The notes beneath the pieces were generated by a model that was given only the letters and a program-made list of their open reading frames with translations, was not told the origin of the DNA and made no database searches. A program made the translations under genes and the position numbers. A stretch of 63,638 bases of DNA from the NCBI GenBank assembly GCA_964618315.1, contig CAZTWQ010000005.1, positions 1 to 63,638 on the forward strand. The letters are read 5' to 3'. The DNA is from an uncultured Methanosarcinales archaeon. GTDB taxonomy: Archaea > Nanobdellota > Nanobdellia > Woesearchaeales > JACPBV01. Positions 43,175-51,862 of the stretch are shown piece by piece (within the stretch, counting starts at the first letter, position 1; each line of letters starts with the position of its first letter).

Positions 43175-43453
43175 GTCGGGTAAGCTAGGTTGGGAGGTTA
43201 GCGCCCTCCTGTTACTGTAAACACGCTTTAGACAGAACTGAAGCTTAGGGAGAGGTATTAGCTTAGTATATCAGTCTTAATATGGACTATGAGATTCTGT
43301 CCTGTAGGATTGATATCTTAAGGAACTGTGTCAGGCCAGGAATGGAGCAGCACTAACTTCTGATATTGATGCTTATAGGGTAGCGGAATTGAGAAGATAT
43401 TAAGGTCAACTGGTATATTTTGTTTTTATCCATCTTTGGGCATGCTTGCCCAC
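43175..43453 (+). ncRNA. ffs: Archaeal signal recognition particle RNA (7S)
   Basis: Helix 8 GTG-T-CAGG-CCA-GGAA-TGG-AGCA-G-CAC (43328-43353) with GNRA loop and CAGG/AGCA symmetric loop. Helix 6 with CCT-GTAG-G tetraloop (43301-43308). Terminal helix 1 GGGTAAGC (43178-43185) pairs with GCTTGCCC (43444-43451). Length about 280 nt. Confidence 0.93.
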
Positions 43454-44636: not shown

Positions 44637-44706
44637 AAAAATCACCTAGTAAATAAGTATTTGAATTTGATTTAAAAAAGTTTTGTTAGGGGGGAGGGTT
44701 ATAAAA

Positions 44707-46938
44707 TTAACTTGAGTAATGTGAAACAACCAAATCGGCCATGGCATTCCTGGTCCTTCTAAATTCCCTAGTCAATTTGCTTTCAGAAATGCTTGTAGCC
44801 TGAGAAAGAGACCTTATCCCCCTATCAGAAATATCATAATCCCACAGATTTATTGCTTGTTCCCATCTTGATCTTTCAGGCTCACTAAGTCCTGCTTGGG
44901 AGTATATAGTTTGCTTATTTAAGGATATAATTTGATTATCTGACAGCCCACCAAAATCATTTGTATCGTATCTTTGAGTAAGAAGCAATGCAAGAAATTT
45001 TCTATTATCCCTATATTCTGAAAATTGCCCGTTTAAACCTGTTTGCACTAAAAGATGTTCTTCAACATATGCCCTGTTTGCATTAGAAACACGCCCTTCA
45101 AATTGATTTCTTAATGCACCTATGAGCTTATGACGGCTAGCCATTGAATGAGTCAGCACAAGAGCGCCCTCTTTTCCTAAGACATAACCTATGTTCTCAA
45201 AAGCAGCTATCCTACCTTCATCATCACTAAAAACATTCCAATCTGATACAAACCTTCTGCTACCAAAATAATCTGGAAATGCAAAGTTAATCATTGCGCC
45301 AAGCGAATAATCAAATTTAGGCAAAAATCCGTGCAACCTGATCATACCTTCATGAGATATAGTTGATGGAAGATCATCAAAATCCCACTTATTTTCCCTA
45401 CATATCTCTTTAATAACTATTTGAAGTCTCAATCTAAAATATCTATCATTTATATTTGAAAGATTTCTATTATGATACGACCGTAATGTTTGCCTTCTCA
45501 ATTCTGAAGGGTCTGCGCCATCTTCAAACACGGAACCATATCGCTTTAACGCAGCAATCCTTATTTTATCGGTCATATGAGCGAGTTCACCATTTACAAA
45601 ATCAGGACTAATTGGTTTTTCATAAGAAATTGCTTTTGATATTTTTTTTACACTATCACCTTTAAGCCACATAGCATATACTTCGCTTTGTCTTTCTGTA
45701 AATCCTGCAGCTGCAACAATATCATCAAGTTTAGATATGTGGTCTCTAGCTAGCCCTGCAGCAGTATCGTACTCACCACCCAATATACCACTATAATTAT
45801 CAGTTATATCTGCTAACAATAAATATTTTTGTCTGTCAACAATATCATCTAGTCCTAATACTTTTGTTTGTAGACACTTATTTGCATCATCTGTTCCCTT
45901 AAATGTAGTAGATAACATCCTTTGAATAAAATGGAGATCATAGTTATGGTTACGGGTCTTTACAATATAATTTTGATTCAATACCATAAATTCCAGTGCA
46001 TCTTTTGCTCTTCTTTTATTATTTCCAGAATTCCAGGCAACACACCCCCTAAAGTCCCATATAGGTATCATTTCATCCGGACCAATAAGGCGGTTTATAA
46101 TATATGGTTTAGCCCTTGATTGGGTTGCTCTTGGATGTAAAGAATACTGCATTAAAAATGACCCAGGTATATTTGCAGGAGAATGGCCTGTTTCCTGTAA
46201 TAAACGAGAGAATACTGCTTGTTGGACAGCTAGTCTTTGTGGACCATTAAGTCCATGATATTTCGGAGTATTTTTTCCAGAATTATCTGAAAAATATGTG
46301 GATTCTCCAGGTGCAACAACTCTTAAGAAAGCCCTTGATTTTAGTAATGCTGATTCTTGACGATTACTTACTGTCTGAATTGCAGTACCGTGCCTATCAG
46401 CAATTGTTTTGAGTACTTCCCTGCTAGAATATCCATCTAATCCAAATCTTGCCCTTAATATCTCTTGCTCCATCTCATCAAGAACTTCAGAAAACAATCT
46501 AATCATCAAAGGACCGTCTTGTTGAACTAAAATATCAAATGAATCTTCCGAAGATGAAGGGATAATGTCGTGAAAAGTAGTTCGATTATGGCCCTGTTGA
46601 TCAGATCTAACAAGATCATCAAAGTATATAAATCCATTTTCAGGCATTCTACTTTCTCTAGTTCTTTTTTTATGCCTATCAAGGGCACTATATCTTACCC
46701 CCCACATTATATGGCTGGGTAATGATCTGCCTTTTTTTGGATTCCAATCTAACATGGCAGCCCATGCATCTATATCTGCTAATTGTCGTTCATCTTCATC
46801 CCCCCTCGACATAACAGGAAGAGACGAGACTATAAGTTTTTCAGAATGAGCATATAATGCATTATGTGCTGAAGAATCTCCTGATTTAGCTTGCGCTATA
46901 AGTTCAAGCTGTTCTTGTGTACTTAAGTCAGTTAACAT
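44707..46938 (-). CDS. Sigma-70-like protein (degenerate regions 1.2/2, 3.2 linker and 4) fused to a second HTH and DUF4046-like repeats
   Basis: ELIAQAKSGD..A.NAL; WNPKKGRSLPSHIMWGVR (cf. FDPxKGxxFxTYAxWWIR); LDEMEQEILRARFGLDG....LKTIADRHGTAIQTV...QESALLK (cf. sigma region 4); FTERQSEVYAMWLKGDSVKKIS. Confidence 0.6.
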   Translation of the reverse strand: MLTDLSTQEQLELIAQAKSGDSSAHNALYAHSEKLIVSSLPVMSRGDEDERQLADIDAWAAMLDWNPKKGRSLPSHIMWGVRYSALDRHKKRTRESRMPENGFIYFDDLVRSDQQGHNRTTFHDIIPSSSEDSFDILVQQDGPLMIRLFSEVLDEMEQEILRARFGLDGYSSREVLKTIADRHGTAIQTVSNRQESALLKSRAFLRVVAPGESTYFSDNSGKNTPKYHGLNGPQRLAVQQAVFSRLLQETGHSPANIPGSFLMQYSLHPRATQSRAKPYIINRLIGPDEMIPIWDFRGCVAWNSGNNKRRAKDALEFMVLNQNYIVKTRNHNYDLHFIQRMLSTTFKGTDDANKCLQTKVLGLDDIVDRQKYLLLADITDNYSGILGGEYDTAAGLARDHISKLDDIVAAAGFTERQSEVYAMWLKGDSVKKISKAISYEKPISPDFVNGELAHMTDKIRIAALKRYGSVFEDGADPSELRRQTLRSYHNRNLSNINDRYFRLRLQIVIKEICRENKWDFDDLPSTISHEGMIRLHGFLPKFDYSLGAMINFAFPDYFGSRRFVSDWNVFSDDEGRIAAFENIGYVLGKEGALVLTHSMASRHKLIGALRNQFEGRVSNANRAYVEEHLLVQTGLNGQFSEYRDNRKFLALLLTQRYDTNDFGGLSDNQIISLNKQTIYSQAGLSEPERSRWEQAINLWDYDISDRGIRSLSQATSISESKLTREFRRTRNAMADLVVSHYSS

Positions 46939-46985
46939 ATTATAACTACTATAAAGTTAATAAATCATTTAAAAATCTTTTGGAA

Positions 46986-47852: not shown

Positions 47853-47888
47853 AAAAATAAAAGAAAAAAGGATTTATTTAAAGGTTTT

Positions 47889-47907
47889 TAAAAAAAAGAA
47901 AAAAGAA
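47889..47907 (-). terminator. Oligo-U archaeal-type terminator after the TIM-barrel gene
   Basis: TTTCTTTTTTCTTTTTTTT on the minus strand, directly after the stop codon. Confidence 0.45.
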
Positions 47908-47908
47908 A

Positions 47909-48841
47909 TTAACTATTCTCTACCAAATCGTTTAGATGTGTCAAGCTTATAACAGCATTCCTCATAGGGTCTGCCAAACCTATACCATCAGGATCAGGTA
48001 TTAAATTATTATTCTTGTCTCTTCCATGGAAATCTTGTTCGTAAGATACACCCCTTACCTTAGGGTCAGCTTTTGCTGCTTCAACTACCTCAGGATTAAC
48101 ATCCTTAAGATCTCCTTGGCCTAGTGGCATAAATGACTTCTCTAAACCCCACCCTTCTCCGCTAAACTTAATGTCTTTAGCATGTATCCCAATTACACGT
48201 CCTGGAAAATCTATTAAAAATTGAGCAGGATCATATCCTCCTGCTAATGCCCAAGCAGTATCTAATTGTACAAACAAATATTCCCCGTCTAAATCCCCTG
48301 GTTTAGATAGATTTAGCATGTATGTGATAAATGGTTTACCATCAACCTGAAGATAGAATTCTGGGTGGTGGTTATGGAGACTAAAATCCATTCCGTCTGC
48401 TCTTAATTTCCGCCCTATTGTTATCAAACGATCAACATATGCTCTAGCTACGCTTGTATTAACTTGTTGTTTTCCTTCAATACCACCTAAATCATTAACT
48501 GGGTCTGCCCATGCATTAACAGCATGTGTTGCTCCAATTTCGTTCATCCAACTAGTCAATTGCTGGTATTTTGTGCCATCTTCAAGTTCTGCTAAACTAG
48601 TATGTACTGCAACTACGTCATGTGGAGTATTCATTTTACTTGATAAATTTCTGCCTCCATGTCCATCATAAGGCCCAAATCCATTTGGCATTAATCCTGT
48701 ACAAAGTTCAACCCCTTCACAAAGCCTGTCAAGTCCACCTAACAATGCCAAAAAACCAGCTTGGTCTGCCTCTGGACTTCCAAGCTTTGCATACATACTC
48801 CTTTGTGAATATGTTTGATTTCCTACACTTAAATTTTGCAT
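47909..48841 (-). CDS. Sugar phosphate isomerase/epimerase (xylose isomerase-like TIM barrel)
   Basis: GNQTYSQR, SLHNHHPEF, QLDTAWALAGG.DP, IHAKD and YEQD metal-site motifs; ATG 48841 preferred, downstream of the GGGGG SD. Confidence 0.8.
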   Translation of the reverse strand: MQNLSVGNQTYSQRSMYAKLGSPEADQAGFLALLGGLDRLCEGVELCTGLMPNGFGPYDGHGGRNLSSKMNTPHDVVAVHTSLAELEDGTKYQQLTSWMNEIGATHAVNAWADPVNDLGGIEGKQQVNTSVARAYVDRLITIGRKLRADGMDFSLHNHHPEFYLQVDGKPFITYMLNLSKPGDLDGEYLFVQLDTAWALAGGYDPAQFLIDFPGRVIGIHAKDIKFSGEGWGLEKSFMPLGQGDLKDVNPEVVEAAKADPKVRGVSYEQDFHGRDKNNNLIPDPDGIGLADPMRNAVISLTHLNDLVENS

Positions 48842-48959
48842 AATTATCAACCCCCTAAGTTGTTAATAGTTAAAATTGATGGAAGATATATAAAACTTTT
48901 TAAAATATCGACGATAAATTTATCTAAATTAGGTGGTAAAAAAGAAGAGAAAAAATAAA

Positions 48960-50608: not shown

Positions 50609-51862
50609 TCACCTACTTTTAGGAACTTTCCATCCCTTGATATTATTATTTAATTTAAAGACTTTAAATGGTTTTTCTTTGACCATCCTTAATATCTTAT
50701 TATTAGATAGTATTTTGATATAATATTTAAGTGTTGTGTCAGAAATATGGATATTTTTATCCTTTAACAACAACAATGCGTCTTGATAAGAAAATGGTTC
50801 TCTATTGTCTGATATTCTCAAGATATCTGAGAAAGTGACTAATGTAAGATGGGTTATTGGATAAGCTAAATCAAAAGCGTTTTTAGCTTCTTTTAGATTT
50901 TTAGCACTACCCTCAAAACCATGAACTAATTCATACAATCTTTGATATTTTCTCGAATTTTTATCAAAATATCCTAATAATTTAGGCTCAAAATTACTAA
51001 ATTGAAGCGTATATCTCCCTTTTTTATCGGGTTTATTATTAAAAGAAATCAAAATATTTTCATCTTTTAATATGTCATATAAGTCAAGAATTAAATTCTT
51101 ACTTTTAGATTGAATCATCGCCTTCCCCCTAATATCGACTGATCCATCAAAAGTTAAAACTCCTAAAGCGAAAGCTTTTCTAAATTCTAAATTAGAGTTT
51201 TTTATGATTTCTGGTTCTTTTACAATGTTAGTTTTCTTGCCAATTGGAAAGCCCAAAAAATTTTTTAGATATCTGCCAAGGATTTTGCTTTTGAAACAAA
51301 AAGTATATGCATTACTTTTCTTATGAAGTTTAGCTTTTATTTTATAACCGAAAACATCTTCTAACCATTTTGTAAATTCGATAACAGATAGTTTATCACT
51401 ATCAATCAATTGATAGTTATATTCGCCCCACAAAGAGCCATCTGCTGCATGTGCCCCAGCTATTTTACAAAGGATTAAATTTAATTCTTTCACAGCTTTA
51501 ATTGGTTTTGAATCATGTCTGGAAATAGATAAAATATCAACTTCATCCTGTATTTTTTGTTTAATTTCTAGATTATTCTTAAATTGCTTAGAAAGTGCTT
51601 CTAAGAATACTAATGGAAACCTCTGGTTTTTAGACCAAAAATAGTCTAAAATTGTTTGAATAGATAATCTTGGAATTAATTCTTTAATTTGCTTTGCAGC
51701 ATTATTAGTTCCATAATTATCTGTTAATTCTTTGATTAAGGAATATACATAAGGGGCTAAATATTTTCCAGAAGCTCTAATCCAGCCCCATCTTGGATCT
51801 TTATCTTCTTCAGGAACGTGTAATTTGAATAAATCAAATTTTTGTATTTTTTTATTAGACAT
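50609..51862 (-). CDS. Free-standing double-motif LAGLIDADG-family endonuclease-like protein with a C-terminal winged helix
   Basis: LCKIAGAHAADGS and KAFALGVLTFDGSV motifs; SK.LGRYLKNFLGFP.GKKT..V.EP.II; no intein splice residues. Confidence 0.7.
   Translation of the reverse strand: MSNKKIQKFDLFKLHVPEEDKDPRWGWIRASGKYLAPYVYSLIKELTDNYGTNNAAKQIKELIPRLSIQTILDYFWSKNQRFPLVFLEALSKQFKNNLEIKQKIQDEVDILSISRHDSKPIKAVKELNLILCKIAGAHAADGSLWGEYNYQLIDSDKLSVIEFTKWLEDVFGYKIKAKLHKKSNAYTFCFKSKILGRYLKNFLGFPIGKKTNIVKEPEIIKNSNLEFRKAFALGVLTFDGSVDIRGKAMIQSKSKNLILDLYDILKDENILISFNNKPDKKGRYTLQFSNFEPKLLGYFDKNSRKYQRLYELVHGFEGSAKNLKEAKNAFDLAYPITHLTLVTFSDILRISDNREPFSYQDALLLLKDKNIHISDTTLKYYIKILSNNKILRMVKEKPFKVFKLNNNIKGWKVPKSR

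Follow-up and report, generated by a model that had tools for sequence, protein, structure and literature searches.

A sigma-like gene fused to a duplicated helix-turn-helix module in a DPANN archaeon, probably encoding a domesticated transcription regulator

The window, by which we mean the whole 63,638-nucleotide stretch of contig CAZTWQ010000005.1 analysed here, contains on its reverse strand an open reading frame (ORF) whose product begins with a sigma-like part and continues with two C-terminal modules in tandem. Its features and their coordinates are collected in Table 1. The sigma share amounts to the first 28% of the protein and the C-terminal extension to 535 amino acids (aa). An earlier note, made from the sequence only, had placed a sigma-70-like gene in archaeal DNA at 44707-46938, which is exactly this ORF. 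The alignments of homologues obtained with HMMER begin at residue 4 of the protein.

The gene is a genuine chromosomal gene of DPANN type (Nanoarchaeota/Woesearchaeota-like), native to its archaeal contig and intact. The identical 743-aa protein is present on 12 contigs from independent assemblies, made with different assemblers from different samples, and its neighbours are constant. A second allele with three amino-acid changes is found on 9 further contigs, again with unchanged neighbours. The GC content of the gene (0.363, and 0.228 at third codon positions) is the same as that of the neighbouring genes. The archaeal setting suggested by the earlier note is confirmed by a signal recognition particle (SRP) RNA, a TrmB regulator encoded near the gene and synteny with metagenome-assembled genomes (MAGs) of Nanoarchaeota and Woesearchaeota. 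The SRP RNA, the clearest archaeal marker on the contig, lies directly after a giant ORF described below. Neither a signal peptide nor a transmembrane segment is present in the protein, which has at most 11 hydrophobic residues per 20-aa window. PADLOC found no match to known defence systems, thus the protein is not a known defence component.

With the single sequence as query, matches to sigma factors were weak yet collinear. Pfam Sigma70_r2 matched at aa 49-94 (E 0.0098, 16.1 bits against a 24-bit cut-off) and Sigma70_r4 at aa 152-200 (E 0.0032, 17.4 bits), and region 4 of RpoH in the PDB aligned with the sigma4 part (E 0.13). PHROG 351, 'sigma factor', matched at E 6.2e-7. The NCBIfam SigH/SigK models spanned aa 5-200 (best E 8.7e-6), but the best score, 25.5 bits, falls far below the cut-off of 212 and the protein is not a SigH or SigK orthologue. 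The signal became strong when a profile was used that consisted of five family N-termini and included no canonical sigma: it matched SigH (3mzy, E 1.2e-12) and SigA (8x6f, E 1.6e-12) in the PDB with both sigma2 and sigma4 covered, and it also found RpoS, FliA and extracytoplasmic function (ECF) sigmas, as well as the sigma2 part of SigA, RpoS and SigB. Aligned with hhalign, a profile of true sigmas and the family N-terminus matched with a probability of 99.2% (E 1.3e-19, 186 columns). Region-4 models scored above the gathering threshold in the relatives P0002, P0020, P0008 and P0014; the sigma3 domain, absent from the target, is present in P0014 (Sigma70_r3, likewise above threshold).

Structure prediction gave the same picture. 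The full-length AlphaFold2 (AF2) model has a mean predicted local distance difference test score (pLDDT) of 74.6 and a predicted template modelling score (pTM) of 0.45. Its N-terminus consists of four helices, a disordered segment (aa 97-139) and four more helices; those of sigma2 span residues 7-18, 22-39, 48-63 and 73-96 (pLDDT 81-89). All of the top 20 Foldseek matches were sigma factors (probability 0.97-1.0), although the best E-value was only 2.4e-3 and the root-mean-square deviation (rmsd) was high, because the orientation of the domains differs. All together, aa 1-208 form a two-domain unit of the sigma-70 family, in which a disordered linker separates sigma2 from sigma4. The sigma order that the earlier note had read in aa 1-205 is thus borne out by profiles and collinear Pfam matches, and the sigma2 and sigma4 folds that it expected of structure prediction were indeed obtained.

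The positions that contact core polymerase and melt the promoter in bacterial sigmas are partly altered. Mapped by eye onto the numbering of E. coli sigma70, the target retains the equivalents of W433 and R436, whereas the equivalent of Y430 is H and that of W434 is G. In region 2.2 it carries Q-L, as against the Q-E kept in the relatives P0020 and P0003, and alignments show that the key positions of regions 2.2/2.3 vary across the family. The earlier note had called the core-binding residues degenerate; this is right for the Q-L, H and G replacements and goes too far for the W433 equivalent, which is kept.

The C-terminal part is a real internal duplication, as judged from profile comparisons. 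Aligned with hhalign, aa 291-469 are homologous to aa 554-743 (E 6.5e-6), and the helical parts of modules A and B alone still match each other (E 8.3e-7, probability 92%). Profile hidden Markov models (HMMs) of each module also match the opposite module in relatives; that of module B finds module A in P0020, P0003 and P0006 at ~1e-4. Each module (~185 aa) consists of a Trp-marked helical domain and then a sigma4/LuxR-like helix-turn-helix (HTH). For HTH-A, Pfam GerE matches at aa 413-459 (E 0.017, 15.2 bits against a 23.5 cut-off), its profile matches the HTH of DesR (E 7e-4) and GerE 1fse (E 0.019), and hhalign aligns it with the protein's own sigma4 (E 2.2e-4); these matches agree with the second region-4-like HTH (FTERQSEV...) noticed earlier. 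The earlier note overlooked the third, C-terminal sigma4-like HTH (aa ~681-743). In the alignment of the modules this HTH-B lines up in register with HTH-A, and Foldseek matches it to sigma4 of SigL (3hug_K, TMt 0.70, rmsd 2.5). The connector between the modules (aa 471-547) is among the most conserved stretches of the family.

The 528 C-terminal residues are modelled confidently as one body (pLDDT 81.8, pTM 0.69), for which Foldseek found no significant structural neighbour in the PDB or BFVD. On the C-terminal half it returned small HTH pieces, of DosR and of sigma4/LuxR type, and nothing else of significance, and the profile of the C-terminal part matched PDB entries in the HTH only. We also considered the modules as degenerate whole sigma units and rejected the idea: the true-sigma profile and the family sigma2 both fail on the helical parts (E 0.1-0.8). 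The earlier note had seen two repeated segments here and likened them to DUF4046. The repetition is upheld by the duplication; the label is not, as Pfam DUF4046 gave no match at E<=10 in the target and none at E<=0.05 in 8 homologues.

The family is tiny and confined to archaeal (Nanoarchaeota/DPANN) contigs. Word-index homology searches, with the protein and with an 8-sequence alignment, returned only the gene's own truncated allele, so that an exhaustive HMMER search was needed: among 1.84 billion representatives it gave 19 matches, 8 of them at E<=1e-10, including the full-length homologue P0002 (E 1.8e-58). Searches found no close relative among GTDB species representatives and no relative in IMG/VR, and P0020 used as query found its own contig only. 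Two members are annotated by NCBI as Nanoarchaeota sigma factors. The gene contexts of the family are all archaeal: PolB, Nop and fibrillarin; S12-S7-EF2; S7-S12-NusA-L7Ae; PriS; and form III RuBisCO with ABCE1 and SAMP.

The number of modules varies within this family, and so does the sigma to which they are attached, which may be ECF-like, SigH-like or of the r2-r3-r4 type. P0008 has a single module after an ECF-type sigma4 (54 bits); the target, P0002, P0020 and P0003 have two, and P0014 about three, after an r2-r3-r4 sigma. In P0004 and P0007 the two modules occur with no recognisable sigma part, and the last HTH of P0004 gives a hint of DUF134. Pfam HTH_16 and Sigma70_ECF matches were obtained in P0002, P0020 and P0016. 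Identity to the target is 25-31% in the C-terminal part versus 20-27% in the sigma part; by this comparison the C-terminal part is conserved at least as well as the sigma unit.

P0002 and P0020 (L094 41-4435 and L091 7108-12535) lie one or two genes from the ribosomal S12-S7 cluster, one on either side. This cluster comes after the RNA polymerase (RNAP) operon in archaea, and the proximity could be either chance or the remnant of an ancestral linkage to the transcription/translation locus. Upstream of P0020 (L091 1769-7102) are nine tightly packed ORFs of 117-372 aa on the same strand, for which Pfam gave a single weak match, to a response-regulator receiver (E 1e-4); together they could be an uncharacterised operon whose last gene is the sigma-like one.

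Comparison with syntenic relatives bears on how the gene came to its place. In L013, L011, L023, L012, L090 and L082 (labelled Nanoarchaeota), whose proteins are up to ~90% identical to those of the window, the order is TrmB-leuCDB-KARI-FAH-MBL-ilvD-AEC-ilvE, and a gap of 50-110 nt separates AEC from ilvE. The sigma-like gene is absent from this spacer in all of them, and the conserved ilvE motif, a B recognition element (BRE)/TATA sequence, follows AEC directly. Since AEC is there followed directly by ilvE, the sigma-like gene, which in the window sits between the AEC stop codon and the ilvE motif, is a lineage-specific insertion. The only direct repeat that brackets it is the BRE/TATA motif shared with neighbouring genes, and no integrase, viral or mobile-element gene lies beside it, its neighbours being metabolic.

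The inserted gene has a putative promoter motif that is a near-copy of the ilvE motif, and near-identical motifs also precede AEC and a TIM-barrel gene. We infer that this is the gene's own archaeal BRE/TATA promoter; its distance from the ATG would predict a nearly leaderless transcript, with a start ~6 nt before the ATG. The shared sequence, AAAAnnTTTTTAAA(T/A), lies ~30 nt before all four gene starts and is likely the BRE/TATA consensus of the organism; given this distance, mRNAs would mostly be leaderless or have short leaders. Two more single-gene insertions occur nearby. One is the TIM-barrel gene itself, between ilvD and AEC; the other, orf417, has two LAGLIDADG-like motifs (IAGAHAADGS and LGVLTFDGS) and a weak match to the intein region of an RNR model (E 5e-4), and is possibly a free-standing homing endonuclease.

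Table 1. Features of the sigma-like gene and of its surroundings in the window.
Feature	Coordinates	Strand	Basis or properties
Sigma-like fusion gene, whole ORF, 743 aa + stop	44707..46938	-	ORF list; translation from first ATG
Sigma2-like domain, aa 5-96, regions 1.2-2.4, four helices	46651..46926	-	Pfam, family profile, hhalign, model
Acidic disordered linker, aa 97-139, position of region 3.2 / ECF linker	46522..46650	-	pLDDT 28-46; net charge -5
Sigma4-like HTH domain, aa 140-208, regions 4.1-4.2	46315..46521	-	Pfam, PHROG, RpoH alignment
Basic spacer, aa 209-284	46087..46314	-	isoelectric point 10.1, net charge +5; moderate pLDDT; no family match
Module A helical domain, aa 285-395, motif P.W...AFDA.E ... 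LL..ITDNNS	45754..46086	-	homology to module B
HTH-A, aa 396-470, LuxR/GerE- or sigma4-type	45529..45753	-	GerE, DesR, own sigma4; pLDDT ~90
Conserved connector, aa 471-547, FEEGA...DRYFRLRL...LP	45298..45528	-	E472, R499 invariant
Module B helical domain, aa 548-680, FAFP..F..W.F...W.G..G..AF.A...NRKFLALL	44899..45297	-	best-conserved part of the family
HTH-B, aa 681-743, third sigma4-like HTH, weaker evidence	44710..44898	-	module register, hhalign, Foldseek
Putative BRE/TATA-like promoter of the sigma-like gene, CAAAAGATTTTTAAAT (sense strand), centred ~33 nt before ATG	46967..46982	-	sequence
Conserved ilvE BRE/TATA motif, AAAAnnTTTTTAAAT[A/C]AAATTC, downstream edge of inserted gene	44670..44685	-	comparison with relatives
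Copies of the AAAAnnTTTTTAAA(T/A) motif	44670-44685, 46967-46982, 47875-47893, 48887-48905		four gene starts
Archaea_SRP RNA, RF01857, full length	43178-43451	+	139.5 bits; 1.2 kb from sigma-like gene
Xylose-isomerase-like TIM-barrel gene, single-gene insertion between ilvD and AEC	47909-48850	-	
orf417, 417 aa, single-gene insertion	50609-51862	-	low GC, 0.278
Giant ORF, 14,385 aa, uninterrupted	6-43163	+	

The surroundings invite some further observations. L011, L012, L013 and L023 have the whole leu/ilv cluster in common with the window (protein identity <=~90%, GC 0.31-0.44). These four are titled 'uncultured Methanosarcinales archaeon', and equally syntenic MAGs have Nanoarchaeota or Woesearchaeota in their titles; the labels in public records thus conflict and the Methanosarcinales titles are probably wrong. 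IlvD is at least 70% identical to proteins of ANME-1 and Desulfobacterales, a similarity that suggests lateral spread of the leu/ilv cluster. The giant ORF occupies two thirds of the window. It is repetitive and rich in N-x-S/T, with recurring lectin-like units ('...IWNRSLS...') and Gly-rich blocks, and its end is formed by a hydrophobic anchor and a Lys-rich tail; its product is presumably a giant surface protein. In other assemblies the ORF has 14,589 aa or is split into 1,518 + 12,814 aa.

Variation between strains is seen at the 3' end of the sigma-like gene. Two strains are otherwise near-identical over 22 kb, and a stretch of ~70 nt at ~44686-44744 holds 12 mismatches and a 3-nt indel between them. 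This micro-hotspot covers the last 12 codons and the 3' spacer, that is, the downstream junction of the inserted gene, and changes three amino acids (A732D, D735E and S743T). A variant of 658 aa, P0001 (L008 and L009), misses 5 nt at a GATAC-GATAC tandem (44962-44966) and is either a real strain allele or the result of slippage or assembly error.

Sigma genes as such were already known in these archaea, and the novelty implied by the earlier note was overstated: sigma-70-class genes were reported in DPANN in 2021, especially frequent in Woesearchaeota, with mis-binning excluded, and they were assigned to protein family fam00359 in a single paragraph that gives no architecture, finds no anti-sigma and proposes no mechanism (Castelle et al. 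2021, PMC8204110). The present gene resembles them in being a bacterial-type sigma-70 homologue with no anti-sigma partner and archaeal-type promoters alongside, and differs in that sigma is only its first part, followed by a duplicated HTH-bearing module. IMG likewise already labels the protein a sigma factor, a sporulation-specific one, although this label fails the SigH/SigK equivalog cut-offs.

Among bacterial sigmas, the nearest likeness is to SigH (Firmicutes/Fusobacteria) and ECF group 4, which share the arrangement of sigma2, unstructured linker and sigma4, with neither sigma3 nor region 1.1. Indeed, the best NCBIfam and PDB matches of the target are SigH models and 3mzy. Unlike these factors, it stays well short of the family cut-offs (25 bits against 212), has regions 2.2/2.3 partly replaced, carries the long extension and resides in a host that has no bacterial RNAP: the organism being archaeal, the usual partner of a sigma is absent. 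A second likeness is to LuxR/GerE and sigma4-like archaeal HTH regulators, which HTH-A recalls by its matches to GerE and DesR; PDB 8hno, an 'archaeal transcription regulator', matches the sigma4 of the family. However, regulators of the LuxR/GerE, DUF134 and 8hno types are small, have one HTH and dimerise, whereas the target has three HTHs and a sigma2 in one chain. What is new is therefore the architecture, a sigma unit joined to a duplicated, otherwise unknown HTH-bearing module, together with the combination of this module with different sigma subtypes and the rarity of the family. Also new is how cleanly the gene has been inserted, behind an archaeal promoter motif, into a cluster of conserved genes for amino-acid biosynthesis.

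On balance, we think that the protein is probably a domesticated, cytoplasmic, sigma-derived transcription regulator with several HTHs. Its first ~208 residues would descend from a bacterial or phage two-domain factor of the sigma-70 family, of SigH/ECF-like type, and the remaining ~535 would be a lineage-restricted invention made of the two tandem modules, predicted to be packed together in a single compact body. Transcribed from its putative BRE/TATA promoter, the gene would yield an all-helical regulator that binds DNA sequence-specifically. The two module HTHs may act as a single-chain pseudo-dimer that reads two half-sites, and the sigma4 HTH possibly makes a third DNA contact. Sigma2, with core-binding and melting residues partly degenerate, would make contacts to protein or DNA instead of acting as a full holoenzyme subunit of the bacterial kind. 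Of the explanations offered by the earlier note, a domesticated regulator is also the best fit to the native composition, the candidate promoter, the missing export signal and the archaeal-only family.

Several observations weigh against this interpretation. DNA binding is deduced from HTH homology only, and the charge of the target's domains is close to neutral rather than strongly basic. HTH-B taken alone is weak (E 0.01-0.04; when hhalign compares it with the region 4.2 HTH of true sigmas, E is 0.01). For the helical parts of the modules, which might sense, dimerise or contact RNAP, neither Pfam nor the PDB nor BFVD gave a match, and they have no detectable relatives. Sigma2 is kept in four full-length members, which argues for some sigma-specific role. 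The frameshift in P0001, seen in one ENA and one JGI assembly, deletes the last 85 aa including HTH-B, and the coding differences between the two strain alleles, 5 nt, all in the last 12 codons, are too sparse for purifying selection to be read from the ratio of non-synonymous to synonymous changes (dN/dS).

The persistence of sigma2 leads to a different explanation, which we consider unlikely: the protein would be a working, sigma-like initiation or specificity factor. Sigma2 would sit on the archaeal Rpo1 clamp coiled-coil, which corresponds structurally to the beta-prime clamp helices of bacteria, and the HTHs would guide RNAP, with or instead of transcription factor B and TATA-binding protein (TFB/TBP), to a special class of promoters. 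This would account for the retained order, spacing and fold of sigma2 and sigma4, for the intact Q-E pair of region 2.2 in P0020 and P0003, for the sigma part kept in most members and perhaps for the two orthologues beside the S12-S7 cluster, with its place after the RNAP operon. Moreover, sigma-70 genes are widespread in Woesearchaeota beside TBP, TFB and TFE, with the mechanism left open (PMC8204110). It is difficult to reconcile with the target's own Q-L in region 2.2 and the H and G at its Y430 and W434 melting equivalents, with the lack of conservation of the region 2.2/2.3 positions across the family, with P0004 and P0007, which have no recognisable sigma part, and with the promoters of the family, which resemble ordinary BRE/TATA. 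In its strictest form, which we find rather more doubtful, sigma2 would dock on the archaeal RNAP clamp as part of a true sigma-type specificity factor, and the tandem HTH modules would recognise promoters of a class of their own. If true, a bacterial principle of initiation would have been grafted onto the archaeal, eukaryote-like transcription machine.

By analogy to ECF41/ECF42 and SigI, the precedents for sigmas with regulatory C-terminal extensions, the protein might instead regulate itself, its extension being a built-in anti-sigma or sensor domain by which sigma2 and sigma4 are kept inactive as long as no signal is present. Like the target, those sigmas have an extra domain after sigma4 and no separate anti-sigma gene; moreover, the fusion of the extension right behind sigma4 recurs among several independent sigma subtypes. 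The failure to find anti-sigma factors in DPANN genomes (PMC8204110) also agrees. Yet the extension of the target bears HTH domains, unlike anti-sigma domains; it is duplicated, resembles none of SnoaL, TPR and SigI_C (Pfam, target and homologues) and has no structural match. Its modules also exist free of sigma, in P0004 and P0007, and sigma2 and sigma4 are not confidently packed on the C-terminal body (pTM 0.45 for the full-length model versus 0.69 for the body). We therefore regard self-regulation as doubtful.

The insertion itself raises the question of whether a virus or mobile element left the gene behind, as a sigma-like gene of phage type that drifts in the chromosome with no function for the host. 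The earlier note had listed such a relic among its explanations, and part of this stands: the gene is missing from the AEC-ilvE spacer of all syntenic relatives, and rpoS-like auxiliary genes have been reported on DPANN viruses and on a prophage (PMC12647753), and divergent sigma-like genes are tied to DPANN and mobile DNA in both cases. The two further insertions nearby, orf417 with its LAGLIDADG-like motifs being one, the PHROG 351 match, the frameshifted allele P0001 and the variation hotspot at the 3' junction point the same way. However, unlike the viral genes (PMC12647753), the target has no viral flanking genes and no relative in IMG/VR. Flanking repeats and an integrase were not found at the locus either, and the PHROG match is limited to the generic sigma4 region. 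The 743-codon ORF is intact, has native composition and its own promoter motif, and full-length identities of 25-29% in distant archaea imply long-term constraint. A functionless relic thus appears quite improbable.

The earlier note had also proposed an effector aimed at a bacterial partner, a secreted protein that would hijack or block the RNAP of a partner or host. The bacterial-type sigma fold and the symbiotic way of life that DPANN are commonly assumed to lead (PMC8204110) are all that speaks for it. Against it, the protein has no signal peptide or transmembrane segment, no secretion genes are linked to the locus, the core-binding and melting residues of regions 2.2/2.3 are partly degenerate, and the known DPANN hosts are mostly archaea (PMC8204110). 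We consider this explanation very improbable. Finally, an assembly chimera in which a piece of bacterial DNA was wrongly joined to an archaeal contig, for which nothing but the bacterial-type domain would argue and which the earlier note had named as a danger, is rejected as a negligible prospect, given the same gene and neighbours on the 12 independent contigs and the 9 contigs of the second allele, from different assemblers and samples, a composition equal to that of the neighbours and homologues embedded in other archaeal contigs.

Archaeal transcription is held to start with TBP, TFB and TFE only, and to our knowledge the sigma-70 homologues of DPANN have been noted once and never explained. 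The locus described here provides a concrete example, in which the gene is intact, its composition native and its architecture defined. It turns a vague annotation into testable questions: does sigma2 touch the archaeal RNAP clamp, or has a sigma been recycled as a DNA-binding regulator, and what is the nature of the helical module? Either answer would inform how transcription factors are transferred across the domain boundary and how DPANN archaea take up bacterial or viral genes.

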